Part shown: in pieces, positions 26,959 through 44,010 of the stretch
Layout of the letters: the number at the start of each line of letters is the position of its first letter
Numbering within the stretch: the stretch's first letter is position 1
NCBI GenBank assembly: GCA_002163085.1
Contig: MAAJ01000002.1
Coordinates: 22,367-86,366 of the forward strand
Length of the DNA: 64,000 bases
Direction of reading: 5' to 3'
From: Methylophaga sp. 42_25_T18
GTDB lineage: Bacteria > Pseudomonadota > Gammaproteobacteria > Nitrosococcales > Methylophagaceae
The notes under the pieces: generated by a model
Database searches by the model: none
The model's input: the letters and a program-made list of their open reading frames with translations, nothing else
Told to the model about the DNA's origin: nothing
Translations under genes and position numbers: made by a program

Positions 26959-27291
26959 TTAATTGTCACGAAGGCACGGTAAGCTCATGAAAAACTTAGT
27001 TCCTTTCCCTAACGCAGATTCCACTGTCATCTCACTACCATGATCTTCAGTAATGATGAAAAAAGACACACTCAATCCTAAGCCTGTACCTACGCCCACG
27101 GGTTTGGTAGTAAAGAAAGGTTCAAAGATACGGTTACGTATTTTTTCATCGATGCAGGGACCATTATCTTCGATGGTCACTGTGACCATGTTTAATGTAG
27201 TGTCATAAGCCGTCTTTAAGGTAATAGTTGCTTGTGTGGTCCCTGTTTCTGACATTGCTTGGCCACCATTACGCAATAAGTTCAAAAACAC
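26959..27291 (-). pseudogene. Truncated histidine kinase (HATPase_c domain only; sensor and HisKA missing)
   Basis: N-box-like LNLLRNGGQA, G-boxes DNGPCI and GTGLGLSV. An in-frame TGA lies about 30 nt upstream of the ORF, so no H-box can be encoded. Confidence 0.6.
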
Positions 27292-27520
27292 CTGTTGTAT
27301 TTTGCCTTCTGCCCAATTCTTTCATTGACTGAATAACGATATTCCTCTCATCGTTGATGACTTCAGATTTGGTCAGTAATAAATTTTCTTAATTATTAAT
27401 TAATAGTGCTACTATTACTGATTTTCAATTTGTACGCTATATGGAAATAAAATAGGACAGGTATTCTATTTTTTCTCCATTTGACTACGAATTAAGCAAG
27501 TAAGATGAAGGGATTCTGGA

Positions 27521-28276
27521 GTGGTAACGTTACAAATTGAGTCATGGGCTGCAATAGCTCCTGGACTTGAAACTAAAGAAGACTGGAGGCGGTGGTTAAA
27601 AAAACCAACCCTCTTACCCGAAGGTTTTAGTAAAGATTCCTTTCGACAAATACCTCCTATGTTACGGCGTCGATTTACCACTCTTGGGCGATGTGCCGTT
27701 ACCGCTGGCCTAAAAATCATGGATGAGGGGCAGTCAATCCCTAGCATTTTTTCATCTCGTTATGGTGATACCGCGATCTCTCTTTCGTTGTTGGAGCAAA
27801 TGGGAATGAATGAACCCATGTCTCCTTCTAATTTTAGTTTAGCAGTCCACAATGCAGTAGGCGGCTTATTTTCAATTGTTCGTAAAGATACGAGCAAGGT
27901 CACATCGATCACAGCGGTAGAAGGTTTTGTCGTTAACACATTATTAGAGGCCGTCGGGCAGCTGCAAGAGTCTGATAGGGTGCTCTGTGTTATTTATGAC
28001 ATTCCATTACCAGAATTATATCAACGCTATTGTGATAGCGATTTATTTCCCTATGCCATTGCTATGATTCTTAACAAGACGGGTGATGAGCAATTAAAAA
28101 TTGAACAGATTATACAACCAGATAACATTGAAAAAATCACCGAAAACTCACAAAAATCAGAGGCACTTCAACTTATCAATATGTTGACAGGTCTTTCGAG
28201 TGAAATGAATACGAAATTAAACGGAGTTATTTGGAAACTCACAAGGACTGTATGTAATGGTACTGAAAAAGCTTAA
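27521..28276 (+). CDS. apeC: Ketosynthase-like chain-length-factor subunit (no Cys-His-His triad), APE cluster
   Basis: 251 aa with KS N-terminal-like fold signatures (SPSNFSLAVHNAVGG) but no active-site Cys motif. GTG start. First gene of the cluster. Confidence 0.65.
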   Translation: MVTLQIESWAAIAPGLETKEDWRRWLKKPTLLPEGFSKDSFRQIPPMLRRRFTTLGRCAVTAGLKIMDEGQSIPSIFSSRYGDTAISLSLLEQMGMNEPMSPSNFSLAVHNAVGGLFSIVRKDTSKVTSITAVEGFVVNTLLEAVGQLQESDRVLCVIYDIPLPELYQRYCDSDLFPYAIAMILNKTGDEQLKIEQIIQPDNIEKITENSQKSEALQLINMLTGLSSEMNTKLNGVIWKLTRTVCNGTEKA

Positions 28277-29030
28277 TTATATCTGGCGTTGGTTTGCAAC
28301 AGCGTTCAGTTTTCTTGTTTTTGGCTTAGGGGGCGTTTTAATGCCACTTCTTGTTGTGCCTATTCTATATTTATTGCCAGGAAACCGATTACAAAGAGAA
28401 CATCGAGGGCAAAAATTCATCCATTATTCATTTCGTGCATTTATCTGGACGCTGGAAAAAATGGGCGTTCTGACATATGAAGTTACTGGGATTGAAAAAT
28501 TAAAGGATGCGAAGTTAGTTCTAGCGAACCATCCATCTTTGTTGGACATTGTTTTTTTAATCGCTTGTGTTCCAAATGCAAATTGTGTGGTCAAAAGTAA
28601 ATTACTTCGAAACCCCTTCATTCGTGGGCCAGTAAAAGCGGCTGGATATATTATTAATAATGATGAAGCAGAAGCTGTCATTACTACTGCAGCACAAGTA
28701 TTCGATGAAGGAAGAGTGGTGATTGTTTTTCCTGAAGGTACGAGAACGACACCATCACAGAAAATTCAACTTAAGCGTGGCGCAGCAAATATAGCAATCA
28801 GGACGGGGGCAGAAATTACGCCTGTGCTCATTGACTGTTCGCCAACAACATTAACGAAAGAAAACCGTTGGTATCAAATACCAGATAAACGGATGCATTT
28901 TACAATACAGGTGAAAGATAAGTTGGATTTCGGTCCGTCTATAGTGAATCTACCACCATCGAAAGCAGCAAGAAATTTAACAAATACTTTGAGTGAATAT
29001 TTTAACGGGGAGGTTGGTGTGTATGAGTAA
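28257..29030 (+). CDS. apeD: Lysophospholipid (PlsC-type) acyltransferase
   Basis: HX4D motif NHPSLLD and FPEGTRT. N-terminal TM helix. Confidence 0.75.
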   Translation: MVLKKLNYIWRWFATAFSFLVFGLGGVLMPLLVVPILYLLPGNRLQREHRGQKFIHYSFRAFIWTLEKMGVLTYEVTGIEKLKDAKLVLANHPSLLDIVFLIACVPNANCVVKSKLLRNPFIRGPVKAAGYIINNDEAEAVITTAAQVFDEGRVVIVFPEGTRTTPSQKIQLKRGAANIAIRTGAEITPVLIDCSPTTLTKENRWYQIPDKRMHFTIQVKDKLDFGPSIVNLPPSKAARNLTNTLSEYFNGEVGVYE

Positions 29031-29283
29031 TCTACACTTAGAAATTAAGCAGATGATAATTGACGTTCTAGATTTAGAAGATATAGATGTAGAAGACATT
29101 GTCGACGAGGAGCCTTTATTTGTTGAGGGTTTAGGGCTTGATTCTATCGATGCATTAGAAATCGGTCTTGCCTTACAAAAACGTTATGACATTAAATTAA
29201 AAGCTGACTCAGAAGATACGCGACAACATTTTGTTAGTGTTAATGCATTAGTGACATTAGTTGAATCGTACACAACGAAATAA
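29023..29283 (+). CDS. apeE: Acyl carrier protein 1
   Basis: 86 aa with the LGLDSIDALE phosphopantetheine Ser motif. The ATG overlaps the apeD stop (ATGAGTAA). Confidence 0.8.
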   Translation: MSNLHLEIKQMIIDVLDLEDIDVEDIVDEEPLFVEGLGLDSIDALEIGLALQKRYDIKLKADSEDTRQHFVSVNALVTLVESYTTK

Positions 29284-29294
29284 AGAGAGTAGTA

Positions 29295-29540
29295 ATGAAC
29301 AACCAAGAAGAAATTTACCTTAAAGTTGTATCACTTTTTGAAAATTTATTTGAGATTGATCCTTCAGAAGTCACATTGGAAGCCAATCTATACCAAGATT
29401 TAGATATTGACAGTATTGATGCCGTAGATTTGGTTATAGAGTTAAGGAAAATGACGAAGAAAAAAATTCAACCAGAAGATTTTAAAACGGTTCGTACCGT
29501 GCAGGATATTGTTGACCAAGTAGAAAAGCTGCTTAGTTAG
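29295..29540 (+). CDS. apeF: Acyl carrier protein 2
   Basis: 81 aa with the LDIDSIDAVD Ser motif. Confidence 0.8.
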   Translation: MNNQEEIYLKVVSLFENLFEIDPSEVTLEANLYQDLDIDSIDAVDLVIELRKMTKKKIQPEDFKTVRTVQDIVDQVEKLLS

Positions 29541-29551
29541 CATACATAGCT

Positions 29552-30097
29552 TTGATTAAACTCATTGTTGTGCTTCTTTCTGTTTGTTATCCCTTTATAG
29601 TGTATTGGGGATTACAGCATCATGACTTTCAAAATTTATTGTTGTTGCTCTTATTGGTATTAATACTGCGGTATTGGTTGGCAACGGAGAGACGTGAACG
29701 CACTGTGATTATCTTCACAGTATTAGCTGTAGGGCTCATTTCATGGTTAGTTGATGGTCAGGTTGGTTTGAAGATATATCCCGTTATGATCAATGTTGGG
29801 TTTCTCGCTGTGTTCGTCCATAGCCTCTATTTCCCTCCAAATATTATTGAACGATTCGCTCGTCTTAGTGAGCCTAACTTGTCACCAAAAATGCTCAGTT
29901 ATACACATAAGGTCACATGGGTATGGATCGGGTTTTTTCTGTTGAATGGATCAATATCAACAGCGACAACATTATGGGCAACAAATGAAATATGGGTGTT
30001 TTATAACGGATTTATTGCTTACATTTTGATGGGGAGTTTATTTGCTGGTGAATGGTTAGTTAGGCGATATAGATTAAAGATAACTAGCAATGGTTAA
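29552..30097 (+). CDS. apeG: Polytopic membrane protein (COG4648-like) of APE clusters
   Basis: 181 aa, about 5 TM helices, at the conserved position between the ACPs and the ligase. The TTG start is uncertain. Confidence 0.55.
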   Translation: MIKLIVVLLSVCYPFIVYWGLQHHDFQNLLLLLLLVLILRYWLATERRERTVIIFTVLAVGLISWLVDGQVGLKIYPVMINVGFLAVFVHSLYFPPNIIERFARLSEPNLSPKMLSYTHKVTWVWIGFFLLNGSISTATTLWATNEIWVFYNGFIAYILMGSLFAGEWLVRRYRLKITSNG

Positions 30098-31481
30098 ATT
30101 GACCCCCTTATCAAATTGGTTAAATGATGCACCTGAACAAATTGTTGCGGTGCATAAAGAAACACGTGTGACAACGGCGGATTTTTTAAATCGTGTTCAA
30201 GTGTGGACCGATGTCCTTGAACAACATCAAGACGAAGGTGGAAAGTGGGCTGTTTATCACCAGGATGCTTTTGAATTTTTAGCTATCTTATTTGCTCTGT
30301 GGCAGTTAAAAAAAACGGCGTGTGTTCCTGGTGATAACCGGCCTGGAACTGTAAAGCGATTAAGTAGCTATGTAGCTGGGTTTATTGGTGAGTTTCCTAG
30401 TATTGACACTGCACTTGATATAGATATAGCTATGCCAACTAGAAAGAGAAAATGGCTTACCTTAGCGCCAGATTTTATTGCTCTTGAAATTTATACTTCG
30501 GGCTCGACGGGACAGCCAAAACCGATTACAAAAACGATCGGGCAGTTAGATAATGAAAGTCATAGTTTGGCTCTTCTTTGGCCCACAAAACCTGACTGTG
30601 TTGTGTTGACCACTGTTTCCCATCAACATTTATACGGTATGACCTTCCGATTATTTTTACCTTTTATTTTAGGGCAGGCATTTGGGCGAAAGTTATGTAA
30701 CTACTCGGAAGATATTTATTATCATGCTAATTATTATTCATCTTTTCTATTAGTCTCTAGCCCATCACATTTAGGCCGATTAAGCAGTCAAATTAATTGG
30801 GCTGAGATAGGTGCGCGTTGTCAGTATATGTTATCTTCATCGGCACCATTATTAAGAGCTGATAGTCTTAAAATTAGCGCTTTATGGAATACGCCGGTGC
30901 GTGAAATTTATGGTAGTTCTGAAACAGGTGCGATTGCATGGCGAAGTCAGACAAAAGATAGTGCCGATGCAAAATGGCAAGCACTGCCATCTACTCAGTT
31001 ATCTTTGACTGATGATGGTGCCTTACAGTTGTCATCAAGTTTTCATGGCAGTAATGAACCAACGATTTTACCAGACAGAGTGTTATTTGATGATGATGGC
31101 ACGTTCAGTTTATTAGGTCGTGAAGACAGTGTGGTCAAGGTTGAAGGTAAGCGTGTTTCACTTACAAATATTGAACAACTCCTTGTAAATAGCCCCTTGA
31201 TCGACGGCTTGAAAGCTATCGTATTAGAAAGAAAACGTATAGAAGTTGCACTGGTGATTAAGTTAACGGCTAAGGGTTCTAACACGTTAAACAAACTTGG
31301 TCGCAAGGACTTGATCCGCCAGTTTAAATCTAGTTTGTCTAATGATCTCGAAGCGGTTGTCTTACCAAGGCGGTGGCGGTTTGTTAAGGACTTGCCGTAT
31401 AACCAGCAAGGTAAATTACCAATGACAGACTTATTAGCATTATTTGAGAAAAATGCTGTAAATATGGGAGAGGCAGTGTGA
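30090..31481 (+). CDS. apeH: AMP-dependent synthetase/ligase (aryl-acid:ACP loading enzyme type)
   Basis: 463 aa. Adenylation core motifs YTSGSTGQPK and EIYGSSETG. Confidence 0.8.
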   Translation: MVKLTPLSNWLNDAPEQIVAVHKETRVTTADFLNRVQVWTDVLEQHQDEGGKWAVYHQDAFEFLAILFALWQLKKTACVPGDNRPGTVKRLSSYVAGFIGEFPSIDTALDIDIAMPTRKRKWLTLAPDFIALEIYTSGSTGQPKPITKTIGQLDNESHSLALLWPTKPDCVVLTTVSHQHLYGMTFRLFLPFILGQAFGRKLCNYSEDIYYHANYYSSFLLVSSPSHLGRLSSQINWAEIGARCQYMLSSSAPLLRADSLKISALWNTPVREIYGSSETGAIAWRSQTKDSADAKWQALPSTQLSLTDDGALQLSSSFHGSNEPTILPDRVLFDDDGTFSLLGREDSVVKVEGKRVSLTNIEQLLVNSPLIDGLKAIVLERKRIEVALVIKLTAKGSNTLNKLGRKDLIRQFKSSLSNDLEAVVLPRRWRFVKDLPYNQQGKLPMTDLLALFEKNAVNMGEAV

Positions 31482-31819
31482 CTAAATGGCCTGAAATTAG
31501 AGCTGAAAATATGGTTGAGGATAGTTATATTATCCAGGCTGTGATCCCCAAAAATCTTCTTTACTTCGATGGACACTTTGCTGATAACCCCGTATTACCT
31601 GGTGTTGTGCAAGTTAATTGGGCCTCGGTAATGGGACGGCGTGCTTTCTCTATATCTGGCACCTTTAAGCAACTAGAAGTGATCAAGTTTCAACAGTTAT
31701 TTTTTCCATTAGATGAGATAACAATTACGTTGAAGTATGACGAAATAAAAAGGAAGTTAAGTTTTAGTTATGGATCTGAACGAGGAGTACACGCAAGTGG
31801 ACGTATTTGTTTCGAATAA
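31478..31819 (+). CDS. apeI: Hotdog-fold 3-hydroxyacyl-ACP dehydratase subunit
   Basis: 113 aa with FabA/FabZ-like FDGHFADNPVLPGV. Confidence 0.7.
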   Translation: MTKWPEIRAENMVEDSYIIQAVIPKNLLYFDGHFADNPVLPGVVQVNWASVMGRRAFSISGTFKQLEVIKFQQLFFPLDEITITLKYDEIKRKLSFSYGSERGVHASGRICFE

Positions 31820-32567
31820 GGAAATAAGCTTTAACCCCGCTATTTTGATTCCTGTTTATAATCATGAAAAAGCGGTTGTAACAACGCTTGAATCGGTGTT
31901 AGCTCATTCCTTACCTATATTACTTGTAGATGATGGTAGTGATAGGGTGTGCCAGCAAGTTTTAGAAGAACTGCGCGACAGTCATTCAGAACATGTCAGT
32001 TTATTGCGACTGGATAACAATGGTGGAAAGGGAGCAGCAGTTAAACAGGGCTTAATTGAACTGCATGCAAAAGGCTACAGTCACGCGATTCAAATTGATG
32101 CTGATGGCCAACATGATACAGATGACTTGCCAACGTTTTTAGCAACGGGACAACGTTATCCATCAACGTTAATCTCTGGCTGCCCGGATTATGATGAGTC
32201 GGTACCTAAATTACGCTATTACAGTAGGTACTTAACTTCTGTCTGGGTGTGGATCAACACTTTATCCTTTGAAATTAACGATAGTATGTGTGGTTTTAGA
32301 GTGTATCCATTGGCTGAAATAGTCACCTTGTTAGAACAAGAAAAATGCGGTGATCGGATGGATTTTGATATTGAGATCATGGTTCGTTGGTTATGGCGTG
32401 GCGGTAAAGTAAAGGGGATCGGCACACGGGTGAATTATCCCGTTGACGGTGTGTCACATTTCAATGCAGTTCATGACAATGTTTTAATTTCGTGGATGCA
32501 TACACGGTTATTTTTTGGCATGTTGTTACGTTTACCTACCTTATTAAGGCGGAAGCTAAATGGGTAG
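31797..32567 (+). CDS. apeJ: Family 2 glycosyltransferase
   Basis: ILIPVYNHE, VDDGSDR and DADGQHD motifs. GTG at 31797 has GAGGAG 9 nt upstream; an alternative ATG is at 31770. Confidence 0.75.
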   Translation: MDVFVSNKEISFNPAILIPVYNHEKAVVTTLESVLAHSLPILLVDDGSDRVCQQVLEELRDSHSEHVSLLRLDNNGGKGAAVKQGLIELHAKGYSHAIQIDADGQHDTDDLPTFLATGQRYPSTLISGCPDYDESVPKLRYYSRYLTSVWVWINTLSFEINDSMCGFRVYPLAEIVTLLEQEKCGDRMDFDIEIMVRWLWRGGKVKGIGTRVNYPVDGVSHFNAVHDNVLISWMHTRLFFGMLLRLPTLLRRKLNG

Positions 32568-33504
32568 GGGAAAACGTCATTGGTCTCAGCTGAGTGAATC
32601 AGGCACGGTAGTCGGTATTAAAATATTATTACTTATCTATCAGTTCTTTGGACGTTGGGGCTTTCGTGTTTTTTTATATCCGGTAATAAGCTATTACTAT
32701 TGGGTTCATGCAACGGCACGTCGTGCATCAAAAGAGTATTTACAGCGACTTAACTCTTTTTTACCACAAAAACAGCATGAAGAACGTTCAAGTTTTAAAC
32801 ATTTTTTAATGTTTGGCGAAATACTGTTAGATAAATTTTTGGTTTGGACAAATCAAATTGGCTTAGATGACGTTGTGTTTGCAACACCAACAGTTTTTGA
32901 TGCAATGAATGAGAGTAATAAAGGTGGAATAATAATTGTTTCACATCTCGGAAATATGGAGGTGTGTAGTGCATTAGTACAACAGTTTCCAGATCTTGAA
33001 TTAACAATTTTAGCCTTTACCCAACACGCAGTTAAGTTCAACAATATGATGAAAGATGCTAGCGATAATAAGCGTATTGAGTCATTGCAGGTTACAGATA
33101 TGACCCCTGAAGTGGCAATGAGATTGTCAGATCGAATCAATAGTGGTGGCTATATTATTATCGCTGGTGATAGAACGCCTGTTACTGGAGAAACTAGGGT
33201 TTCAGATGTCTCATTTTTAGGCGGTATAGCCTCCATGCCACAAGGAGGATTTATTTTAGCAGGACTATTGAAATGTCCGGTTTATTTTTTGTTTTGTTTA
33301 AAGCAGAAAAATCAGTACCAGATCTATTTGGAGCTGTTTTCACATCAGTTGGTTTTTCCTCGAAAAGAACGCCAGTCGGCGATGAATACGGTTGTGCAGC
33401 AATATGCTCAGCGTTTAGAGCACTATTGTGTGATTGCGCCATTACAATGGTTTAATTTTTATTCTTTTTGGAAAGAAAAAGAACAGGTTAAATATGAACG
33501 ATAA
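32560..33504 (+). CDS. LpxL/HtrB-like (lipid A biosynthesis-type) acyltransferase
   Basis: 314 aa. N-terminal TM helix; VSHLGNMEV and AGDRTP regions resemble lauroyl/myristoyl acyltransferases. Confidence 0.6.
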   Translation: MGRGKRHWSQLSESGTVVGIKILLLIYQFFGRWGFRVFLYPVISYYYWVHATARRASKEYLQRLNSFLPQKQHEERSSFKHFLMFGEILLDKFLVWTNQIGLDDVVFATPTVFDAMNESNKGGIIIVSHLGNMEVCSALVQQFPDLELTILAFTQHAVKFNNMMKDASDNKRIESLQVTDMTPEVAMRLSDRINSGGYIIIAGDRTPVTGETRVSDVSFLGGIASMPQGGFILAGLLKCPVYFLFCLKQKNQYQIYLELFSHQLVFPRKERQSAMNTVVQQYAQRLEHYCVIAPLQWFNFYSFWKEKEQVKYER

Positions 33505-33919
33505 AGTAGAGCTCAATGCAGAAGTGTTTATTGATATTCCATTTCATGATGTCGATCTAATGCGAGTTGCCTGGCATGGCCATTATGCAAAATACATGGA
33601 AATTGCTCGAAGTGCGTTATTAGATAAAATTGATTATAACTATCCTCAAATGGAAGAGTCGGGCTATGTTTGGCCTGTTATCGACATGAGAGTTCGTTAT
33701 GCTCATCCTTTACGTTTTATGCAAAAAGTAAAAGTGATAGCGACATTAGTCGAGTGGGAGAACCGTCTTAAAATAGCGTACTTATTTGAAGACACTGAAA
33801 GTGGTAAACGTTTAACTAAGGCATATACAGTGCAAGTGGCTGTTGATATGGAAAACCATGAAATGTTGTATGTTTCACCGAACATTCTTTTTCGTAAACT
33901 GGGTTTTCTTGATGAATAA
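33494..33919 (+). CDS. apeK: 4HBT/YbgC-type acyl-ACP/CoA thioesterase
   Basis: 141 aa with the hotdog thioesterase motif HDVDLMRVAWHGHYAKYME. Confidence 0.7.
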   Translation: MNDKVELNAEVFIDIPFHDVDLMRVAWHGHYAKYMEIARSALLDKIDYNYPQMEESGYVWPVIDMRVRYAHPLRFMQKVKVIATLVEWENRLKIAYLFEDTESGKRLTKAYTVQVAVDMENHEMLYVSPNILFRKLGFLDE

Positions 33920-34475
33920 ACTGTTACTGATTTGCCTTACACTTTTTCCTTTAGTTGTTTGTGCTGAGTTAACGTATGGAGAGTTGGAGAAGATATCAAC
34001 TACGCCTGAACAACTGAAAGGTCATTTCGAACAAGAAAAATATATTTCAAATTTATCGGTTAGCTTGAAGTCATCAGGACATTTTTCTTACCAACGAGGT
34101 CAAGCGCTTCATTGGCAGACGATGGTGCCAATCCAACACGAACTAGTGATGACAAGAGAAAGCATTATTAACAGACAAGGTGAAAATGAGTTAATACACC
34201 TAGATGTAAGTTCAAATCCTGCTCTTCAGGTAATAAGTGAATTATTTTTTTCAGTTTTGACTGCGGAATGGCAAGGATTAGAGCGATTTTTCAAATTATC
34301 GTCTGGCAGTAATGTAAATGGTCAATGGGTTGCAGAGTTGTTACCCATAGATACTGTCATAACTCAATTTTCGGAAAGGGTAACGCTACAAGGTGACTCT
34401 TTATTACGCGAAGTGACAATATACGAAAAAAGTGGTGATTACACTAAAATACGGTTTGATGACTTAAGTCAGTGA
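33912..34475 (+). CDS. apeL: LolA-like outer-membrane lipoprotein carrier family protein
   Basis: Signal peptide MNKLLLICLTLFPLVVCA. Size and position match LolA-like APE genes. The ATG overlaps the upstream stop. Confidence 0.6.
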   Translation: MNKLLLICLTLFPLVVCAELTYGELEKISTTPEQLKGHFEQEKYISNLSVSLKSSGHFSYQRGQALHWQTMVPIQHELVMTRESIINRQGENELIHLDVSSNPALQVISELFFSVLTAEWQGLERFFKLSSGSNVNGQWVAELLPIDTVITQFSERVTLQGDSLLREVTIYEKSGDYTKIRFDDLSQ

Positions 34476-36805
34476 AACTAATGACATCAAACGTTAAGAT
34501 TTTACCTATTCTGTGGTTATTATTTGTCACGGCTATCGCTGTTATAGCATTTAATGCAAAGCCAGTTTTTGACTCCAGTATTATGAGCTTACTACCGAAG
34601 TCTAAACAGCAAATTATCGTCCAGCAGGCAACAAAGAAAATGAGCGATATGTTTGCAAAGCGTGTCATCTTCTTACTTTCTTCTAATAGTGATAGCGAAG
34701 TCAGAGAAGTAGTTAGCACGTTAGCTGCAAGGCTAGAATTATTGCCTGATGTAGTCAATGTTGAGTGGCAGGTTAATGAAAGTGATTTCAGTAAAAGTCA
34801 GCAGGAGTTATATCCCTATCGCTTTGCCTTAATTGATCCTGTCAGTCGTCAATTAATGCTGAATCAGCAGTTTAAAGATATTCAAACACGGGCGTTATTA
34901 AACTTATACAGCCCAATAACTACCGGCGCTATTTCAATAATCGACGATCCTTTTGGATTATTTACACAGCTGAAGCTGGATCGTAAGACAGAACTCAACC
35001 TTCAAGTTTCCAATTCATTATTAAAAGTAGTGGGCAGCCAGCAACCAACATATATGCTGATAATGACACTGGCCGAGAAACCTTATTCTCCAGAGTTACA
35101 ACAGCGAGTTTTAAGTGTTATTGATAATCAAAAACGGGCAATGAAACAACGTGGCGTAAATATGGCGATGTCTGGCATGTTATTACATGCCGCAGCGGGT
35201 GCAGAGCAGGCAAATAAAGAAATCATGAGTATAGGTTTAGGATCTTTGCTCGGCATCATCATAATGATGTTATTTGTTTTTCGACAATTTAAACCTTTGT
35301 TTATGATGATATTCTCAGTATTAATGGGATGTGTTGTAGCGATTGCGGTAACAACATTAATATTTGAGCGGATACATGTTATTACATTAGCGTTTGGAGC
35401 AGGATTAATAGGTGTTTCGCTGGATTATGCCTTACATTATTTGTGTGAACGACGGGTGACACACAGTGACAAATTATTGTCCAAGATCATAATGGGCTTA
35501 TTATTAGGCTTGTTTTCTAGTGTTATCGCTTATGCGGCACAAGCAATGGCACCTTTCCCTGGATTACAGCAAATGGCTGTTTTTTCAGTTATAGGTTTAA
35601 TTGCATCGTGGTTGACGGTTGTTTTGTGTTTTCCTCTATTAACGCACTCCGACCCAATCAGGCCCTTAAATGCAGCTGCACAATTAACGAGATTGTTAAA
35701 AAACATTCCTCGAGTTGAAAATTGCCAAAAAACGTTCATCGTCATGCTGTTCATCAGTGTATTCATCGCGGTGTTAACGCTATCAAAGAGTCAGAATGTG
35801 GACGATGTTCGATTATTGCAAACATCACCAGCTGGTTTGCTGCAGCAAGAAAACTTTGTAAAGACTCAGCTTAATGCGAGTAGTAATTCACAGTTTCTTT
35901 TAATTCAAGCTAATAGTGTTGAAGCCGGTCTGCAAAAAGAAGAAGCGCTCAGGCCATTACTTGAACGGCTAATTTCAACAACATCGATTTCAGGCTATCA
36001 GGCCTTATCCACTGTTTTGCCATCCTTAAATAAACAAGAGGAAAACGCGCGTTTAATAAAAGAGTTATATAGGCAACAGCTAAGCTCTTTTTATGAGCAG
36101 CTTGACATGACAACTGAGAATTACCAGAAAGCACAAGCAAGTTTGACACAAGCTTTACCACAGCGACTAAGTTTTGATGAGTGGCAGCAGCATGAGGAAA
36201 GCAGAATGTGGGAGAACTTTATTGTCTCTGCGAAAGATGGACAGTTTGGCACGATCGTTCGATTCTCAGGTGTAATAGATCAACATGCTAAACAGCAACT
36301 CGCAGCGTTAGTTGCAGGTGACGACCAAATTATTTTTGTAGATCAGATACGCGATATATCTAACATAATGGGAGAGTATCGAAAGCAAATTATTAACTTG
36401 GTTCTTATTGCTTATTTATTTGTATTATTAGTGCTGTTGCATCGTTATCGGACTCAAGTATGGCGTATTATACTGCCGCCTTTACTGGCTTCAATTTTCA
36501 CACTAGCTATTTTGACTCAGTTGGAACAAGGGATAAATGTGTTCCATTTGATGGCACTTATTTTGGTATTAGGCATTGGTTTAGATATGGGGATTTTCTT
36601 AACTGAAACACGCGAGTCATTACATACCTGGTTAGCGGTTTCGCTTTCAGCGTATACGAGTTTACTCGCTTTTGGCTTACTGACCTTAAGTGATACTCCA
36701 GTGTTACATCATTTTGGTTTAACGGTGTTAGTGGGTTTAACGCTAGTCTGGATGCTGGTACTTGTGATGAGAAAAAACATCCCTGAATATGCCACTAAAA
36801 GCTAA
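34472..36805 (+). CDS. apeM: MMPL/RND-superfamily exporter
   Basis: 777 aa: two 5-6 TM bundles, each preceded by a large soluble loop. GTGA overlap with the upstream stop. Confidence 0.8.
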   Translation: MKLMTSNVKILPILWLLFVTAIAVIAFNAKPVFDSSIMSLLPKSKQQIIVQQATKKMSDMFAKRVIFLLSSNSDSEVREVVSTLAARLELLPDVVNVEWQVNESDFSKSQQELYPYRFALIDPVSRQLMLNQQFKDIQTRALLNLYSPITTGAISIIDDPFGLFTQLKLDRKTELNLQVSNSLLKVVGSQQPTYMLIMTLAEKPYSPELQQRVLSVIDNQKRAMKQRGVNMAMSGMLLHAAAGAEQANKEIMSIGLGSLLGIIIMMLFVFRQFKPLFMMIFSVLMGCVVAIAVTTLIFERIHVITLAFGAGLIGVSLDYALHYLCERRVTHSDKLLSKIIMGLLLGLFSSVIAYAAQAMAPFPGLQQMAVFSVIGLIASWLTVVLCFPLLTHSDPIRPLNAAAQLTRLLKNIPRVENCQKTFIVMLFISVFIAVLTLSKSQNVDDVRLLQTSPAGLLQQENFVKTQLNASSNSQFLLIQANSVEAGLQKEEALRPLLERLISTTSISGYQALSTVLPSLNKQEENARLIKELYRQQLSSFYEQLDMTTENYQKAQASLTQALPQRLSFDEWQQHEESRMWENFIVSAKDGQFGTIVRFSGVIDQHAKQQLAALVAGDDQIIFVDQIRDISNIMGEYRKQIINLVLIAYLFVLLVLLHRYRTQVWRIILPPLLASIFTLAILTQLEQGINVFHLMALILVLGIGLDMGIFLTETRESLHTWLAVSLSAYTSLLAFGLLTLSDTPVLHHFGLTVLVGLTLVWMLVLVMRKNIPEYATKS

Positions 36806-37366
36806 ATGGATTATAGAAAAATGAGAGCGTCAAAATTAATTCTCTATTGTTTTGTCTTGTTGTTAAGTGGCTGTAGTTTATTTTCAAAACCAGATAGCAC
36901 TAACCGAGAGTTAATGCTACTGCCACCCTCACAGGGACCGGAAGCCACCGTATTAAAACAAGTTGTTACTGTGAAGGGTAACGGAGAAGAAACTTCATTC
37001 TTAGTTGTGAGTAAATTTGAGCCGGAAAAGTTAGGGCTAGTCGCTTTATTACCAACGGGTCAGTCATTATTGTCACTAGACTATGATGGCCTAGATGTAA
37101 CACAACAATTGTTCGCTGAAATCAGCTTGCCAAGTGAAGAAATGTTAGCCATTATGCAGTTTGCATTATGGCCTGAGCCATCGATTAAACAACACTATAC
37201 GCAGGATGCTGGTTGGGTAGTAACCATCGATTCAGAGCAACGTACGTTATCAACATTGACAGAAAAAATACTTACAATACGATACCAGCAACAAACAGTT
37301 TTAATTGAGCATCATTTGCATCAATATAAAGTTATTGTTCGGACTATAGAAAAATATTCACTATGA
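36806..37366 (+). CDS. apeN: DUF3261-like lipoprotein
   Basis: Lipobox LLSGC. 186 aa, at the conserved position after the exporter. Confidence 0.6.
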   Translation: MDYRKMRASKLILYCFVLLLSGCSLFSKPDSTNRELMLLPPSQGPEATVLKQVVTVKGNGEETSFLVVSKFEPEKLGLVALLPTGQSLLSLDYDGLDVTQQLFAEISLPSEEMLAIMQFALWPEPSIKQHYTQDAGWVVTIDSEQRTLSTLTEKILTIRYQQQTVLIEHHLHQYKVIVRTIEKYSL

Positions 37367-38559
37367 CAAAACGATGTTATCTCAACGCGGTAGGCATACT
37401 ATGTTCTGCTGGTGACTCACCTGAAATGGTTAAGAAAAGTTTACTGAACCAACGAACAACACTGACAATGAGCTCTGCGTTTAGTACTGATATGGAAACA
37501 GTGTTACCACTAGGTATTTATCAGGGAGAATTGCCTGAATTAACACTGACTGACAAAAAATGGCAAAGTAGGAATAACCAGTTTGCTATAGCAGCTCTTA
37601 AGCAAATTAATAATGAAGTACAAGATGCAATAACACAGTTTGGAGCACATCGCGTAGGAGTGATTATTGGAACAAGTACCTCTGGTACAGCTGAAAGTGA
37701 AGCTGCGATTGAGCAGTGGGTTCAGACAGGAGATATTCCTCCTGAGTATGATTACGGTTTGCAGGGAATGGGCGCGCCAGCTCAATATGTGGCGGAATAT
37801 TTAGGCGTACAAGGGCCTAGTTATGGAATATCAACAGCCTGTTCATCCGGTGCAAAGGCATTGGCTTCAGCGAGACGATTGATTCGTGCGGGAATCTGCG
37901 ATGCTGTTATCGCTGGTGGTGTTGATACTTTGTGCAAACTTACAGTACAAGGATTTTCATCACTTGATGCGGTGAGTGATGAGATTTGTAATCCCTTTAG
38001 TAATAATCGTAAAGGTATAAATGTTGGAGAGGGAGCCGCTTTGTTTTTAATGACATCTGTTGAGAAGGGCGTTGAGTTATTGGGCGTTGGCGAGGATAGC
38101 GATGCTTACCATCTTTCAGCACCAGACCCAACTGGAGCAGGTGCTGTAAGGTGTATGACAGCTGCCGTAAATGACGCAAACTTAATTCCTGATGATATCG
38201 GTTATGTGAACCTGCATGGAACATCAACGAAGCTAAATGATCAGATGGAATCAATAGCCATGCATGCCGTGTTTGGTCCTGATACCTTATGCAGCTCAAC
38301 CAAACCATTCGTTGGACATACATTAGGTGCAGCAGGTGTCGTGGAAGCTGCAATTTGTTATTTAACACTTGAGTCTGGGACGGATGACTTTGTGCCAGTG
38401 CAGCTTTGGGATGGAGTGCTTGATCCAGAATTGCCGAAGATTAACCTTGTCGACTCGACAGAAAAACTGACCAGTCCTCTTAACTATGTATTAAGTAATT
38501 CATTTGCTTTTGGAGGAAGTAGTATTTCCTTATTATTCGGGCGAATAAGTAATGACTAA
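37363..38559 (+). CDS. apeO: Beta-ketoacyl-ACP synthase (elongating KS)
   Basis: 398 aa. Cys-His-His triad: STACSSG, HGTSTKLND, GHTLGAAG. Confidence 0.85.
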   Translation: MTKRCYLNAVGILCSAGDSPEMVKKSLLNQRTTLTMSSAFSTDMETVLPLGIYQGELPELTLTDKKWQSRNNQFAIAALKQINNEVQDAITQFGAHRVGVIIGTSTSGTAESEAAIEQWVQTGDIPPEYDYGLQGMGAPAQYVAEYLGVQGPSYGISTACSSGAKALASARRLIRAGICDAVIAGGVDTLCKLTVQGFSSLDAVSDEICNPFSNNRKGINVGEGAALFLMTSVEKGVELLGVGEDSDAYHLSAPDPTGAGAVRCMTAAVNDANLIPDDIGYVNLHGTSTKLNDQMESIAMHAVFGPDTLCSSTKPFVGHTLGAAGVVEAAICYLTLESGTDDFVPVQLWDGVLDPELPKINLVDSTEKLTSPLNYVLSNSFAFGGSSISLLFGRISND

Positions 38560-39001
38560 TTTTAGTGTAGATGATCTTGTGCCGCATTCAGGATTAATGA
38601 GTTTATTGGATCGTATCGTTGATTATGGTGATGATTGGCTCGAGGCCCAGGTAGATATTTCAGATAACACCCTCTTTTTGGAAGAGCAAGGCATACCTGC
38701 TTTAGTTGGATTAGAGTATTTAGCTCAAACAATAGCTGCTTTTTCAGGTGTTGAAGAACAGCTTAAAGGTGGTAGTCCTAAACTAGGTTTTCTATTAGGA
38801 ACAAGAAAGTTTGAATGCTCAACGGATTATTTTCAATTAGGACAAACGATAACGTTAAAGGTGCAACGTGAAATGAAAGCTGAAAATGGACTCCATGTAT
38901 TTCAGTGTGTTTTATCTGGCGAGGGGCTTAGTGCAACGGCGACGATAAATGTGTTTCAACCTGAAGATGCCAATACGTTTATAAAGGAAGCAAAAGCATG
39001 A
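38552..39001 (+). CDS. apeP: Hotdog-fold dehydratase subunit
   Basis: 149 aa, hotdog-like. Lies between KS and KR, as in APE clusters. Confidence 0.65.
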   Translation: MTNFSVDDLVPHSGLMSLLDRIVDYGDDWLEAQVDISDNTLFLEEQGIPALVGLEYLAQTIAAFSGVEEQLKGGSPKLGFLLGTRKFECSTDYFQLGQTITLKVQREMKAENGLHVFQCVLSGEGLSATATINVFQPEDANTFIKEAKA

Positions 39002-39723
39002 ACAAAACGGTTTTGGTAACAGGATCTAGTCGGGGCATTGGTAAAGCTATTGCTTTACGTCTTGCTCGTGAACACTATGATCTTGTACTTCATTGTCGGA
39101 ATAACCGTGAACAAGCGGACGAGGTGGCAAATGAAATCGTTGAAATGGGGCAGTCTGCACGAGTCTTACAGTTTGATATTGGAGACCGCGAACAAGCAAG
39201 GACTGTTCTGGAGCAGGATATGGATGAGTTTGGAGCTTACTATGGGGTGGTTTGTAACGCAGGAGTTGCAAGAGATAATGCTTTTCCTGCAATTCCGGGC
39301 GATGAGTGGGACCTTGTATTAAGAACAAATTTAGATGGTTTTTATAATGTACTTCATCCAATCATCATGCCTATGATACGGCGACGTAAGCCGAGTCGAA
39401 TTATTACGCTATCTTCAGTGTCAGGTGAAATGGGTAATAGAGGCCAAGTTAATTATAGTGCGGCTAAGGCCGGAATTATCGGTGCAACGAAAGCATTGGC
39501 TATTGAACTTGCAAAGAGAAAAATAACGGTAAATTGTGTCTCTCCTGGATTAATTGATACAGAAATGGTTGAGTCAGTAGTAATGGACGAAGCGTTGAAA
39601 ATGATTCCAATGAAACGAATGGGCCGCGTAGAAGAAGTTGCGGGTACAGTGAATTTTCTACTGTCAGAAGATGCGGCATATATAACCCGTCAAGTTATTT
39701 CAGTTAATGGTGGAATGTTTTAA
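38998..39723 (+). CDS. apeQ: 3-oxoacyl-ACP reductase (FabG-type SDR)
   Basis: TGSSRGIGKAIA cofactor motif and the catalytic S...YSAAK. Confidence 0.9.
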   Translation: MNKTVLVTGSSRGIGKAIALRLAREHYDLVLHCRNNREQADEVANEIVEMGQSARVLQFDIGDREQARTVLEQDMDEFGAYYGVVCNAGVARDNAFPAIPGDEWDLVLRTNLDGFYNVLHPIIMPMIRRRKPSRIITLSSVSGEMGNRGQVNYSAAKAGIIGATKALAIELAKRKITVNCVSPGLIDTEMVESVVMDEALKMIPMKRMGRVEEVAGTVNFLLSEDAAYITRQVISVNGGMF

Positions 39724-40949
39724 TGAAACGAGTAGTAGTGACGGGGATGGCGGGGTTTTCACCGATAGGAAATGATTGGTCGACCATTAATGAGAATCTA
39801 AAAATAATGCAGACGGGCATTGTCAGAATTGATGACTGGGATAAATATGATGGGCTAAATACACGTTTAGCTGCTCCCGTATCTGATTTCAAAGTGCCGG
39901 AACATTACACACGTAAAGTACTACGTGGAATGGGCCGAGTAGCACAGCTTGGAGTGAGGAGTACAGAGCTCGCTTTAGAAAATGCAGGCTTATTAGGCGA
40001 TGAGCTTGTAAGCAGTGGTCAAATGGGAATTGCCTATGGATCTTCTGCTGGTGATACGGCGGCCTTTGCTGGTTTTGCCCACATGATAGCAAACCATTCT
40101 TGCGATGGCTTAAATGCTAACTCGTATATAAAAATGATGGCGCATACATCACCGGTTAATATTGGTGTTCATTTTGGCTTGCAAGGAAGAGTTTATACCA
40201 CTTCAAGTGCATGCACCTCGGCAAGTCAAGGTATTGGTTTCGCCTATGAAGCGATTAAACACGGCCAGCAAATTGCAATGGTTGCTGGTGGTTGTGAATC
40301 CTTATGTGCAACAGCAGCAGCGGTATTTGATACCTTATATGCAACGAGTGTGCGAAATGATGAACCCCACCTTTCACCTAAGCCTTTTGATATAGATAGA
40401 GATGGCCTTGTTATTGGCGAGGGAAGTTGCACTTTTATTCTGGAAGAACTAGAGCACGCAGAAGCTCGAGGCGCAAAAATTTATGCCGAAATTGTAGGTT
40501 TTGGTACAAACTCAGATGGTAGTCATATTACGCAGCCAGTAGCTGAAACGATGGAAAAAGCAATGAGACTGTCTTTGGATGATGCGAAATTATCCCCGGA
40601 TACTATCGGCTATGTGAGTGCTCATGGTACCGCGACAGATCGAGGTGATGTGGCAGAGACAAATGCAACGTTTAATTTATTTGGTAATAAAACACCCATT
40701 AGTTCTTTCAAAAGTTTTACCGGCCACACGCTTGGTGCATGTGGTGCACTAGAAGCGTGGGTCGCGATTGAAATGATGACTCAGAATTGGTTCCATGCAA
40801 CAGCAAACCTTGATAAGGTTGATCCCGCTTGTGGTGATTTAGACTATATCATTCATGAGGGCCGTAATATTGAAACTGAATATGTCATGAGCAATAACTT
40901 TGCTTTTGGTGGCATAAATACCTCTTTAATTTTTAAACACTGGTCTTAG
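39723..40949 (+). CDS. apeR: Beta-ketoacyl-ACP synthase (FabB/F-like KS)
   Basis: 408 aa. SSACTSASQ, HGTATDRGD, GHTLGACG. Confidence 0.9.
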   Translation: MKRVVVTGMAGFSPIGNDWSTINENLKIMQTGIVRIDDWDKYDGLNTRLAAPVSDFKVPEHYTRKVLRGMGRVAQLGVRSTELALENAGLLGDELVSSGQMGIAYGSSAGDTAAFAGFAHMIANHSCDGLNANSYIKMMAHTSPVNIGVHFGLQGRVYTTSSACTSASQGIGFAYEAIKHGQQIAMVAGGCESLCATAAAVFDTLYATSVRNDEPHLSPKPFDIDRDGLVIGEGSCTFILEELEHAEARGAKIYAEIVGFGTNSDGSHITQPVAETMEKAMRLSLDDAKLSPDTIGYVSAHGTATDRGDVAETNATFNLFGNKTPISSFKSFTGHTLGACGALEAWVAIEMMTQNWFHATANLDKVDPACGDLDYIIHEGRNIETEYVMSNNFAFGGINTSLIFKHWS

Positions 40950-40973
40950 GCCACAGATAAAAGGAAGTATCTC

Positions 40974-41729
40974 TTGAAAAAAATGAAATATATTGGCGTT
41001 ATATCGGCTCTGTTTTTAGCCTCTTCTGCAATGGCATATACAACAGATGATGAGCGAATTGATGACTATTTAAATACATTAGCTACTGCTGGTGTTGATA
41101 CTAAAGTGACAATGCTTAATCGTATGCAGTGGGCAGGTATTACATCACCACGCTTCTACGATGAAGTTGAAAAACAATTGTTAGAGGTGTACTTAAATCG
41201 TAACTTAAGTCATATGCAGATAAAATTAGCGAGCTATCAAATACGCTCACTTGGTTATAGTGGCAACGAAAAATATCGAGCAACGTTAGATACGATCAAA
41301 AAGGATGCTTTTGCAGGAAAGTTTAAAGCTCATGCAACTAGAGCGTTACGAGACATTGGCAATTTCGCTGCATGGAACAGAGCAGTAGCAAATAGCTCGT
41401 TCGAGGTAAAAGGAAAATCGGCTGAAGTTACGACTTATATGAAAATGTTAAATGATGATGATGTGTTGGTGCAGCGTTTGGCCGCTCGTGCAATGTTTCA
41501 TGAAAAGCAAAGAGATGCTGACTTATTGGCATTAGCGGCTGATAAATTAACATTATTAACTAAGCAGCCGAATCTTAACAGTGATGAGCAAGATACGGCT
41601 GCATGGCTCTGTAAGGCGGTTGGGCAAAGTGGTGAAACTGTATATATAGATTTATTACGTCAAGTTATTGCTGGCACATCCTATGGCAAAATAAAAAGGC
41701 ATGCGTCGAAATTCACATCTCAATACTAA
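40974..41729 (+). CDS. Secreted alpha-helical repeat protein of unknown function
   Basis: Signal peptide (ISALFLASSAMA) followed by helical repeats. The TTG start has AAGGA 8 nt upstream. I recognise no family. Confidence 0.45.
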   Translation: MKKMKYIGVISALFLASSAMAYTTDDERIDDYLNTLATAGVDTKVTMLNRMQWAGITSPRFYDEVEKQLLEVYLNRNLSHMQIKLASYQIRSLGYSGNEKYRATLDTIKKDAFAGKFKAHATRALRDIGNFAAWNRAVANSSFEVKGKSAEVTTYMKMLNDDDVLVQRLAARAMFHEKQRDADLLALAADKLTLLTKQPNLNSDEQDTAAWLCKAVGQSGETVYIDLLRQVIAGTSYGKIKRHASKFTSQY

Positions 41730-41832
41730 GCTTGTAATAGCTAATTAAAACCGTATTAACGATTATTAAAGAGACAGCTGTCCATTTTTTTGGGGCCATT
41801 TGTGCCCCATGTTATGGCGACAGAGAAAATTT

Positions 41833-42552
41833 ATGGATAACAGTAAGAAATTAACAACACCTTGGGTAAAGGAGTCACTATTTGGGGTTTGGTTTTTGGG
41901 TACAGAAACATGGGTCCGAAGCGTCCTAACTCGAGCGATAAAAGATCTGATTAGATTGATGCCCACCAGACAAGATAGCTACTCTACGATTCTAGATATT
42001 GGCTTTGGTCATGGCCATTCTTTATGGCTGCTAGAAAAGTACTTTAAACCAAGTAAAATAATAGGTTTAGATGTTGACCCGAAAGCAGCAGCAAGAGCAA
42101 AACATAACATTAATAAATGTAACTGTGTTGTTGAACTGCAACAATCGGATGCAGCTACAATAGCATTGCCGGATGCATCGGTGGATATGGTGTTTTGTCA
42201 TCAGTCCTTCCACCATTTAATCAATCATGATCAAGCGATGGAAGAGTTTTTTCGTGTATTGAAGCCTGGAGGCATTTTGCTATTTGCAGAGTCATGTCGA
42301 CGATATATTCATTCTTATATGATTAGAATATTTTTCCGCCATCCTATGGATGTGCAGAAAACGGATCTTGAATACATCGATTTGATTGCTAAAACTGGGT
42401 TTATCGTCAAACCGGAATATGTATCGAGACCGTTTTTATGGTGGAGCCTACCTGATTTAGGATTGTTAAGTTATTTCGGTTTAAAAGCGAAAGAAATTGA
42501 AGGTGAACGTGAAGAAACAATGGTTAATTTAGTTGCTTATAAACCTGAGTGA
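41833..42552 (+). CDS. apeB: Class I SAM-dependent methyltransferase
   Basis: ILDIGFGHGH (motif I), LKPGGILLF (post-II). The symbol is assigned by analogy only. Confidence 0.65.
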   Translation: MDNSKKLTTPWVKESLFGVWFLGTETWVRSVLTRAIKDLIRLMPTRQDSYSTILDIGFGHGHSLWLLEKYFKPSKIIGLDVDPKAAARAKHNINKCNCVVELQQSDAATIALPDASVDMVFCHQSFHHLINHDQAMEEFFRVLKPGGILLFAESCRRYIHSYMIRIFFRHPMDVQKTDLEYIDLIAKTGFIVKPEYVSRPFLWWSLPDLGLLSYFGLKAKEIEGEREETMVNLVAYKPE

Positions 42553-42577
42553 AATATAACTAAAAGTATCGTTGTTT

Positions 42578-43303
42578 TCAGACAATAAACTCCTCTGACA
42601 GTGTTAACGTAAACATCTGTTCGTTACTTGAAGTGGGATAGTGATAGCACTTAATTATTTCCGGTTTATTTTTTACTACAAGTGAAAGCTGAAACTGTTG
42701 GTTTTTACCTTCATATAAAAACCACTGTTTTCTGTCACTTATTAATGTTGGAATGGAGATGTTTTTTAAAGACGTTTCTAATTGTTTTTTTCGAGAAATC
42801 GCTTTGTAATAAGCTTCTTTTGCACACCATAGTCGGTAGAAATTATTTGCTTGTTCATTTTTGTTGCGAGTAATGATTCTAAGCTCTTCATCATCCATTA
42901 CTAGCGGGCTTAAAGCTTCATAATTTCTATTAGCCAGTACATATTCAAGGTCTAAGCCAATAGAAGATGAAGATATTGCAAAACAGATAAGACCATTACT
43001 ATGACTTAGGCTGAGATATGTATCTTTTGGCAGATTGTTGACCATAGGTGGGCAGTTTGGTTTATCTATAAACTCCCATTCATCTTCAGGCGTTCCAAAC
43101 TGTCGGGTTAACGCATGTCTCATAAGCGCTCTACTGATGAGGAATTCACGTTTTTTATTATTACTTTTAGTTGCGTCTAGTCTTGTTTTCTCACTTGAAG
43201 ATAATAAGTTTTCAATCCTGCTTTCATGAGTCTTTGAAGTATTGCTTATATGGCAATACCAAATATCAATAGACAGAGGTGAATTCTGAGACTGTGATTT
43301 CAT
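42578..43303 (-). CDS. Sfp/EntD-type 4'-phosphopantetheinyl transferase
   Basis: 241 aa. LSLSHSNG, IGLDLE and WCAKEAYYKA motifs. Confidence 0.8.
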   Translation of the reverse strand: MKSQSQNSPLSIDIWYCHISNTSKTHESRIENLLSSSEKTRLDATKSNNKKREFLISRALMRHALTRQFGTPEDEWEFIDKPNCPPMVNNLPKDTYLSLSHSNGLICFAISSSSIGLDLEYVLANRNYEALSPLVMDDEELRIITRNKNEQANNFYRLWCAKEAYYKAISRKKQLETSLKNISIPTLISDRKQWFLYEGKNQQFQLSLVVKNKPEIIKCYHYPTSSNEQMFTLTLSEEFIV

Positions 43304-43368: not shown

Positions 43369-43818
43369 TTAAAACTTTTTCGCGAGTTTAGGCATGATCT
43401 GTAATGCCTGATCTTTACTCACAAGAAAGAAATCAGTTGAAGTCGTAAAGTAACTACTGGACACATAATATGTGTCAGGGCTTATAGAGTAATGTAAAAA
43501 ATAAGTTTTACCTGCTTTGAAGTTTCCTTCCACAAACCCGTCCCCCCCAATTTCGAGGGCTCTTCTTTCAGCTGCAATACGATGGTTGCCAGCAGGCAGT
43601 TTGTAGATGAGATAGGAATTGTTTGACAGGTTGCGAATTCTGCAATTATCAATAGCCATAGGTGTTGAATATAGCATTCCATAAGACGCGTCAGGCCTAT
43701 ATATGACCAAGGTGACAGCATCTGCACTTTCTTCATGAGGGACAGCACAATAAGGGCTAGTTGTTGCACAGCCTTGTAGAATGATGACTAAAGAGAGAAG
43801 TAATATCCGTATTTTCAA
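43369..43818 (-). CDS. DUF2846-like lipoprotein
   Basis: Lipobox ILQGCATT. 149 aa. Confidence 0.6.
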   Translation of the reverse strand: MKIRILLLSLVIILQGCATTSPYCAVPHEESADAVTLVIYRPDASYGMLYSTPMAIDNCRIRNLSNNSYLIYKLPAGNHRIAAERRALEIGGDGFVEGNFKAGKTYFLHYSISPDTYYVSSSYFTTSTDFFLVSKDQALQIMPKLAKKF

Positions 43819-43980: not shown

Positions 43981-44010
43981 AAAAGCCCCATCACAATAAA
44001 GTGATGAGGC
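43981..44010 (-). terminator. Terminator hairpin downstream of tRNA-Asn
   Basis: Minus-strand reading is GCCTCATCAC-tttattg-GTGATGGGGC followed by TTTT, with one mismatch in the stem. Confidence 0.5.

Follow-up and report, generated by a model that had tools for sequence, protein, structure and literature searches.

An aryl polyene gene cluster of the E. coli/Xenorhabdus type in a Methylophaga-related bacterium, with a conserved secreted protein gene beside apeR and a class I methyltransferase

Aryl polyene (APE) clusters are the most widespread family of biosynthetic gene clusters in Gram-negative bacteria. Those of Escherichia coli CFT073 and Xenorhabdus doucetiae are the closest described relatives of the locus presented here. 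ApeH adenylates 4-hydroxybenzoate and loads it directly onto an acyl carrier protein (ACP) and ApeR initiates (PMC8253772, summarising the work of Grammbitter), after which elongation and control of chain length fall to ApeO:ApeC, reduction to ApeQ and dehydration to ApeI/ApeP; the same source describes the roles of the transport genes (PMC8253772). For the lipid that carries the pigment, it has been proposed that ApeF bears a second, non-aryl conjugated acyl chain, which ApeD puts on lysophosphatidylglycerol, that ApeJ adds N-acetylgalactosamine and then the ApeE-bound pigment, and that ApeG, ApeM, ApeL and ApeN bring the lipid to the outer membrane (bioRxiv 10.1101/2020.12.19.423268). We describe here a cluster of this kind at positions 27521-43303 of a 64,000-nucleotide stretch from Methylophaga sp. 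42_25_T18 (contig MAAJ01000002.1), the whole of which is referred to below as the window.

This region is in all likelihood a complete and apparently functional APE cluster of the E. coli/Xenorhabdus type. We read its pathway by orthology to the reconstituted systems. The open reading frame (ORF) listing gives 19 consecutive, non-nested ORFs on the + strand from 27521 to 42552, exactly the 19 co-directional genes counted by an earlier annotation made from the sequence alone (hereafter the sequence-only reading), and a single convergent ORF on the - strand (42578-43303) that encodes a 4'-phosphopantetheinyl transferase (PPTase). The 19 ORFs and the convergent PPTase gene form one compact unit. 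According to the same listing, the cluster genes are connected by translationally coupled overlaps, of 4 or 8 nucleotides at 29023, 30090, 31478, 32560, 33912, 34472, 37363, 38552 and 38998; apeQ and apeR have one base in common, and apeM and apeN abut. The sequence-only reading had put ten overlaps in the 4-8 nucleotide range, which is right for these nine junctions and wrong for apeC/apeD at 28257, where the overlap is 20 nucleotides. All 20 ORFs are full length with their catalytic residues present, and their GC content (0.37-0.42) is that of the remaining window.

To examine collinearity, each of the 20 cluster proteins was compared by blastp with an annotated E. coli locus (L001), whose gene order is that of the 18-gene apeA-apeR table for CFT073 in PMC8253772. 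Seventeen window genes proved strictly collinear and one-to-one with E. coli apeC-apeR, at 25-62% identity, and the match in content and order that the sequence-only reading had put forward is thereby borne out gene for gene. The 558-aa ApeJ of E. coli is represented in the window by two genes, one for a GT2 glycosyltransferase that aligns with residues 2-245 (51% identity) and one for an acyltransferase that aligns with residues 243-553 (37%), and ApeJ is likewise split into separate genes in the gene calls of relatives. Homologues of apeA and apeB were found neither in the cluster (blastp) nor anywhere else in the window. Nothing in the E. coli cluster corresponds to the three genes after apeR, namely a gene that we call X, a gene for a methyltransferase that depends on S-adenosylmethionine (SAM) and the Sfp-type PPTase gene, all three within the region covered by the sequence-only reading and left undescribed there. 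The functions which that reading did name were all recovered by Pfam and NCBIfam scans or, for ApeG, which has no Pfam family, by its identity to E. coli ApeG. The same 20-gene arrangement is found in the nearest relatives. At a greater distance, the segment encoding ketosynthase, ketoreductase and ketosynthase matches 825 of 5426 complete E. coli genomes by blastn, at genes annotated FabG2 and beta-ketoacyl-ACP synthase. Leaving aside the loading of an aryl acid by ApeH, for which there is a homologue with adenylation motifs at the expected position, the cluster has the defining features of the APE family that can be read from sequence. What is new is one more copy of an APE cluster with lineage-specific traits, namely a split ApeJ, the lack of ApeA and ApeB, and the addition of X, a class I methyltransferase and a PPTase. 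The 20 genes are listed below, with percentages of identity to the E. coli proteins.

27521-28276, + strand: apeC, ketosynthase-like chain-length factor, inactive, 251 aa (PF13723, 183 bits; 27%)
28257-29030, + strand: apeD, PlsC/LPLAT-type acyltransferase (PF01553; 39%; motifs HPSLLD, of the HX4D type, and FPEGTR)
29023-29283, + strand: apeE, acyl carrier protein 1 (NF006617, PRK09184, 86 bits, cut-off 70; 52%; serine in LDSID)
29295-29540, + strand: apeF, acyl carrier protein 2 (NF003757, PRK05350, 121 bits, cut-off 65; 58%)
29552-30097, + strand: apeG, small integral membrane protein (no Pfam family; 41%, full length)
30090-31481, + strand: apeH, predicted adenylating aryl-acid:ACP ligase (PF00501; 32% over 418 aa)
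31478-31819, + strand: apeI, hotdog dehydratase subunit (PF22818 ApeI-like, 59 bits, cut-off 28.5; 32%)
31770-32567, + strand: apeJ N-terminal half, GT2 glycosyltransferase (PF00535; 51% to ApeJ residues 2-245)
32560-33504, + strand: apeJ C-terminal half, LpxL-like acyltransferase (PF03279; 37% to ApeJ residues 243-553)
33494-33919, + strand: apeK, 4HBT/YbgC-type thioesterase (PF13279, PF03061; 54%, alignment from the Met at 33494)
33912-34475, + strand: apeL, LolA-like periplasmic carrier (PF03548; 25%; signal peptide from the Met at 33912)
34472-36805, + strand: apeM, MMPL/RND-type exporter (PF03176; 26% over 780 aa)
36806-37366, + strand: apeN, DUF3261 lipoprotein, LolB-like (PF11659, 93 bits; lipobox LLLSGC; 26%)
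37363-38559, + strand: apeO, elongating ketosynthase, partner of ApeC (NF006618, PRK09185, 488 bits, cut-off 407; 43%)
38552-39001, + strand: apeP, hotdog dehydratase subunit (PF22817 ApeP-like, 41 bits, cut-off 27; 32%)
38998-39723, + strand: apeQ, FabG2-type ketoreductase (TIGR01831, 396 bits, cut-off 339; 62%)
39723-40949, + strand: apeR, FabB-like ketosynthase for initiation (NF006587, PRK09116, 693 bits, cut-off 470; 58%)
40974-41729, + strand: X, secreted all-alpha HEAT/ARM-like repeat protein, 251 aa (signal peptide; predicted fold)
41800-42552, + strand: class I SAM-dependent methyltransferase (PF08241, PF13649)
42578-43303, - strand: Sfp/HetI-type 4'-phosphopantetheinyl transferase, convergent (PF01648; weak NCBIfam matches to HetI and AcpT)

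The ketosynthases were placed by means of curated NCBIfam cut-offs and bit scores against PDB structures. ApeO stays below the cut-offs of FabF (TIGR03150, 227 bits, cut-off 494) and FabB (149 bits, cut-off 630), as does ApeR (FabF 357 bits and FabB 293 bits, same cut-offs), and both pass the models PRK09185 and PRK09116, respectively. Among solved structures, ApeO matches X. doucetiae ApeO (6QSP_A, 320 bits) and Acinetobacter baumannii ApeO (7F28_B, 292 bits), any FabF reaching at most 174 bits. For ApeR the scores are 534 bits with 4EWG and 504 bits with A. baumannii ApeR (7F27), compared with 273 bits with FabF and about 200 with FabB. Both enzymes thus score about twice as high against the solved ApeO and ApeR structures as against FabF and FabB, and the alignments retain the catalytic triads C160/H285/H319 in ApeO and C164/H301/H335 in ApeR. 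The two ketosynthases therefore match Ape-specific models and stand apart from housekeeping FabB/FabF, with which the sequence-only reading had asked whether they group. The chain-length factor ApeC has no PF00109 or PF02801 match in the Pfam scan and matches in the PDB only 6QSP_B and 7F28_A, both ApeC chains; in the alignment it bears an Asp in the Cys column and stops before the His-His half. The identities of the PDB entries matched by ApeO, ApeR and ApeC are confirmed in PMC8358021.

Of the remaining enzymes of chain assembly, ApeQ reaches 256 bits with the FabG model TIGR01830, below its cut-off of 298, and scores 335 bits against A. baumannii ApeQ (7CAW) versus 167 bits against E. coli FabG (1I01). 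For the dehydratase, the best PDB match of ApeI is 6QSR_A and the sole match of ApeP is 6QSR_B, an entry that is probably the X. doucetiae ApeI:ApeP complex. E. coli ApeO, ApeR, ApeQ, ApeE and ApeF pass the same five NCBIfam families as the window proteins. The serines of both ACPs are present in the sequence, and ApeH, encoded at the matching position, has the motifs SGSTGQPK and YGSSETG and a C-terminal GK. Because the cluster holds no source of a starter, the starter acid is presumably 4-hydroxybenzoate from the ubiquinone pathway. The PPTase gene lies at the matching position in two close relatives (L002 and L004), with 62-70% identity; in E. coli, whose cluster lacks a PPTase gene, the orphan PPTase AcpT serves instead (PMC8253772). 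ApeG is labelled COG4648, its function label being taken from PMC8253772.

The product of gene X matches no Pfam or NCBIfam family above cut-off, HEAT_2 appearing only as a sub-threshold match. A word-based search returned 89 homologues, all of them unnamed, and a profile search of 1.84 billion representatives extended the family to 677 clusters at E<=1e-10, each being a 50%-identity cluster. The AlphaFold2 model, computed from 36 homologues, is a 13-helix alpha-solenoid with a pLDDT of 92; a Foldseek search of the PDB with it gave HEAT-repeat proteins only, among them designed alphaRep/armadillo ones, at a TM of about 0.33, and no functional lead. When the GTDB representative genomes were scanned with the X alignment, X was found in 46 loci, in Marinobacterium, Methylophaga, Motiliproteus, Amphritea, Pokkaliibacter, the Olavius Gamma-3 symbiont, sponge symbionts, about 17 Shewanella species and Cellvibrio. 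In 38 of the 46, X is immediately preceded by apeR in the same orientation, 36 of these having no more than 102 nucleotides between the two genes, and in one rearranged cluster X is still beside ape genes. X is conserved as an extra, clade-specific APE component, with a probable site of action in the periplasm. A bolder proposal, which we put forward as tentative and rather less likely than its negation, is that X founds an undescribed family of secreted HEAT-like proteins forming a dedicated periplasmic part of APE-lipid handling in marine Gammaproteobacteria, perhaps as a chaperone or adaptor of the pigment-lipid between ApeM/ApeL export and insertion into the outer membrane, in a clade that swaps the halogenase for an unrelated class I methyltransferase.

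The ape cluster of a metagenome-assembled genome of Candidatus Spongiihabitans (L006/L013, 1-10744) is rearranged. Its block of ketosynthase, ketoreductase and dehydratase genes lies by apeC-G on the opposite strand, X is divergent beside a methyltransferase gene, and the locus encodes a fused ApeH-ApeI protein of 598 aa, in which an AMP-binding part is joined to an ApeI-like one, as well as an additional alpha/beta hydrolase.

The methyltransferase gene next to X may bear on the head group of the pigment. It has no similarity to E. coli ApeB, a methyltransferase of the FlxJ family, and it is kept beside X in the nearest relatives; the whole arrangement of X, methyltransferase and PPTase recurs in the closest metagenomic relatives, which have ApeR proteins at 88-93% identity. 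Across the 40 X loci with apeR, 33 have a halogenase, five have a methyltransferase of the window type, two have neither and none has both. The halogenase of the relatives is a tryptophan-halogenase-type FAD enzyme encoded between apeM and apeN (for example at 4626-5858 of L005, and also in L007). In the window there is no room for it, because apeN begins at 36806, right after the last base of apeM (36805), and tblastn with the relatives' halogenase as query gave no match in the whole 64 kb. This mutual exclusion suggests that the two enzymes are alternative means of head-group tailoring. Since methylation and halogenation are known alternative decorations of the head group (PMC8253772) and since the two genes exclude one another, the window methyltransferase is probably the head-group tailoring enzyme. 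In the closest relative, a Logan assembly (L004, ApeR 93% identical), the methyltransferase gene at 7339-8087 is in two frames, owing to a frameshift that makes it a pseudogene or else to an error in the assembly.

As all parts are present and intact, the described pathway can be taken as a working model, with the ApeJ activities on separate polypeptides. The adjacent Sfp-type PPTase would turn both ACPs into their holo forms, and ApeH would adenylate the starter, a hydroxybenzoate that is most likely the 4-hydroxybenzoate of the ubiquinone pathway, and transfer it onto ApeE. ApeR would carry out the first condensation, whereupon the ApeO:ApeC heterodimer, ApeQ and ApeI:ApeP would iterate with malonyl units; in the absence of enoyl reduction, the product should be a conjugated aryl polyene. 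The class I methyltransferase would tailor the aryl head, in place of ApeB or of the relatives' halogenase. ApeD and the split ApeJ (GT2 and acyltransferase) would then build a glycerophospho-sugar lipid with the pigment, ApeK acting as a thioesterase, and ApeG, ApeM (MMPL), ApeL (LolA-like) and ApeN (DUF3261) would ferry this lipid to the outer membrane, where it would serve as a cell-bound yellow antioxidant.

The setting of the cluster indicates a change of place. UvrB, encoded at 45424-47439 of the window, shares 96% identity with a protein encoded on a 1.3-Mb metagenome contig of the Joint Genome Institute (JGI), Ga0209495_1000001, and 85-88% with proteins of Methylophaga, Methylophagaceae and Piscirickettsiaceae. 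Exact or near-exact copies of the window proteins were absent from the collections searched, and a scan with the MMPL protein gave no match in the GTDB representative genomes, which include no near relative of the window species. Contig Ga0209495_1000001 has the same ape cluster (L002), about 560 kb from its aspC-uvrB-thrS-infC-pheST backbone (L054), and it carries xfp-ackA (phosphoketolase and acetate kinase) upstream of aspC, where the window has the ape cluster. Because the cluster occupies a different site relative to the conserved aspC-uvrB backbone in this congener, it has changed chromosomal position within the lineage. At its 5' edge it adjoins a histidine-kinase remnant (26959-27291, - strand, and 27292-27520) that retains only HATPase_c from the N-box 'NLLRNGGQA' onward, with several in-frame stop codons just upstream. 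A classical mobile island finds no support, as there are no flanking direct repeats, no att-like copies of the tRNA-Asn 3' end and no integrase, and the GC content equals that of the surroundings.

Several points weigh against our reading of a complete and functional APE cluster. ApeH is only 32% identical to its E. coli counterpart, so that the starter acid is not fixed by sequence, and UbiC, XanB2 and TAL are absent from the cluster and the scanned window ORFs, no search having been aimed at them in the rest of the window. The methyltransferase, which is no relative of ApeB, could act on a ring carbon, a ring oxygen or a carboxyl group, and its best NCBIfam match is a sub-threshold BioC. A promoter scan, in which sigma-70-like sites were fewer than in shuffles, gave no convincing promoter upstream of apeC, and clusters of this kind may be silent, X. 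doucetiae being an example (bioRxiv 10.1101/2020.12.19.423268). On a rival reading, the window cluster is intact in sequence and transcriptionally silent or decaying, a relocated island without function in its host. The truncated kinase at its 5' end, its distance from the aspC-uvrB backbone in a congener with a 96% identical UvrB, the lack of a clear sigma-70 promoter and the frame-split methyltransferase gene of L004 would all fit; however, 20 full-length ORFs with their catalytic residues, a GC content equal to that of the surroundings and the lack of flanking repeats or an integrase make this unlikely in our view.

Other readings concern the product, and we regard each of them as more improbable still. 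All core enzymes are paralogues of type II fatty-acid synthesis, and the Xenorhabdus cluster also yields a non-aryl conjugated C26:5 acyl chain (bioRxiv 10.1101/2020.12.19.423268), from which one might suppose a second fatty-acid synthase set making an ordinary or non-aryl polyunsaturated membrane lipid. This is very unlikely, as both ketosynthases are below the FabF/FabB cut-offs and in Ape-specific families, the cluster has its own adenylating ligase, an orthologue of ApeH, and enzymes that tailor an aromatic ring (halogenase or methyltransferase) accompany the related clusters. The sequence-only reading had called the cluster xanthomonadin-type, a label that is only loosely right, the window having no halogenase. 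A halogenated, xanthomonadin-type product could be expected from the halogenase found between apeM and apeN in 33 of 40 related clusters with X, but the window has no gap at that place, no tblastn match and a methyltransferase instead, and we hold such a product to be extremely improbable; moreover, none of the 20 cluster proteins has a XanB2-type chorismatase domain, as judged by domain content without a XanB2 query. Hardly conceivable, finally, is a flexirubin-type pigment, in which an aryl polyene is esterified to a dialkylresorcinol. The NCBIfam matches that hint at it, LolA2_flexi (69 bits, cut-off 125) and FlxB (271 bits, cut-off 340), are weak and both below cut-off, the genes follow the order of the proteobacterial ape operon, and the 20 cluster genes include none for DarA/DarB-like proteins, an ammonia-lyase or an FlxJ-type methyltransferase.

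Beyond the 3' end of the cluster lies a DUF2846 gene (43369-43818, - strand), between the PPTase gene and a tRNA-Asn(GTT) gene (44024-44099) that begins about 0.7 kb past the cluster; it was rejected as a member, since relatives lack it beside the PPTase gene. The tRNA is the sole Rfam element, riboswitches included, found at 26-45 kb, and a strong terminator-like hairpin of 15 pairs with a T-run (43980-44015, - strand) directly follows it. Immediately upstream of the cluster, 13917-26913 is rich in signalling genes, with two methyl-accepting chemotaxis proteins, a histidine kinase, a receiver domain and two PAS-GGDEF-EAL proteins of about 1000 aa that are 55% and 52% identical to one congener protein. 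Further away, a LexA/S24-peptidase-like gene followed by an impB/mucB/samB (UmuC-type) polymerase gene (7456-9321) makes up an umuDC-like SOS mutagenesis pair, and three ORFs of 217, 386 and 303 aa (at 523-2356 and 57866-58777) have no Pfam family at E<=1e-5. Because the rest of the window consists of housekeeping and signalling genes, it was reasonable to call the cluster its largest accessory system.

One more APE member in an uncultured Methylophaga-related marine bacterium would be little gain alone. To our knowledge, no part of the pathway is less well understood than the export and anchoring of the APE lipid, and the lead worth following is X, a conserved, undescribed periplasmic protein that accompanies apeR in Methylophaga, Marinobacterium, Motiliproteus, Shewanella and symbiont genomes. 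Furthermore, the clean either-or pattern of halogenase and methyltransferase offers a testable handle on head-group tailoring, and the cluster-linked PPTase makes for a self-contained version suited to heterologous expression.

Compared with known systems, the window cluster is nearest to APE_Ec of E. coli CFT073 (apeA-apeR, c1204-c1186) and to the near-identical ape cluster of X. doucetiae, with which it shares the order apeC-D-E-F-G-H-I-J-K-L-M-N-O-P-Q-R. It is like the CFT073 cluster in having a reciprocal homologue for each of these genes (25-62% identity), ApeO, ApeR, ApeQ, ApeE and ApeF in the same curated families, and operon-like gene overlaps. It differs in having neither apeA (lipoprotein) nor apeB (FlxJ-family methyltransferase) and in its split ApeJ, and it adds at the 3' end the secreted HEAT-like X, an unrelated class I methyltransferase and a dedicated Sfp-type PPTase. 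The A. baumannii proteins ApeO:ApeC (7F28), ApeR (7F27) and ApeQ (7CAW), compared as individual proteins only, are among the top PDB matches, far above FabF, FabB and FabG. The Xanthomonas pig cluster for xanthomonadin follows a related type II polyketide synthase logic, and both systems deliver an outer-membrane pigment; while pig producers have a halogenase, as do many relatives of the window cluster, the latter represents the methyltransferase variant. A neighbouring PPTase gene was observed in no clusters other than that of the window and those of its closest metagenomic relatives. The broader group to which the cluster is related comprises the uncharacterised APE clusters of Methylophaga, Marinobacterium, Motiliproteus, Amphritea, Pokkaliibacter and Shewanella, with ApeR 64-78% identical to that of the window, X directly 3' of apeR, ApeJ split wherever the gene calls were looked at and, in most of them, a halogenase in place of the methyltransferase.

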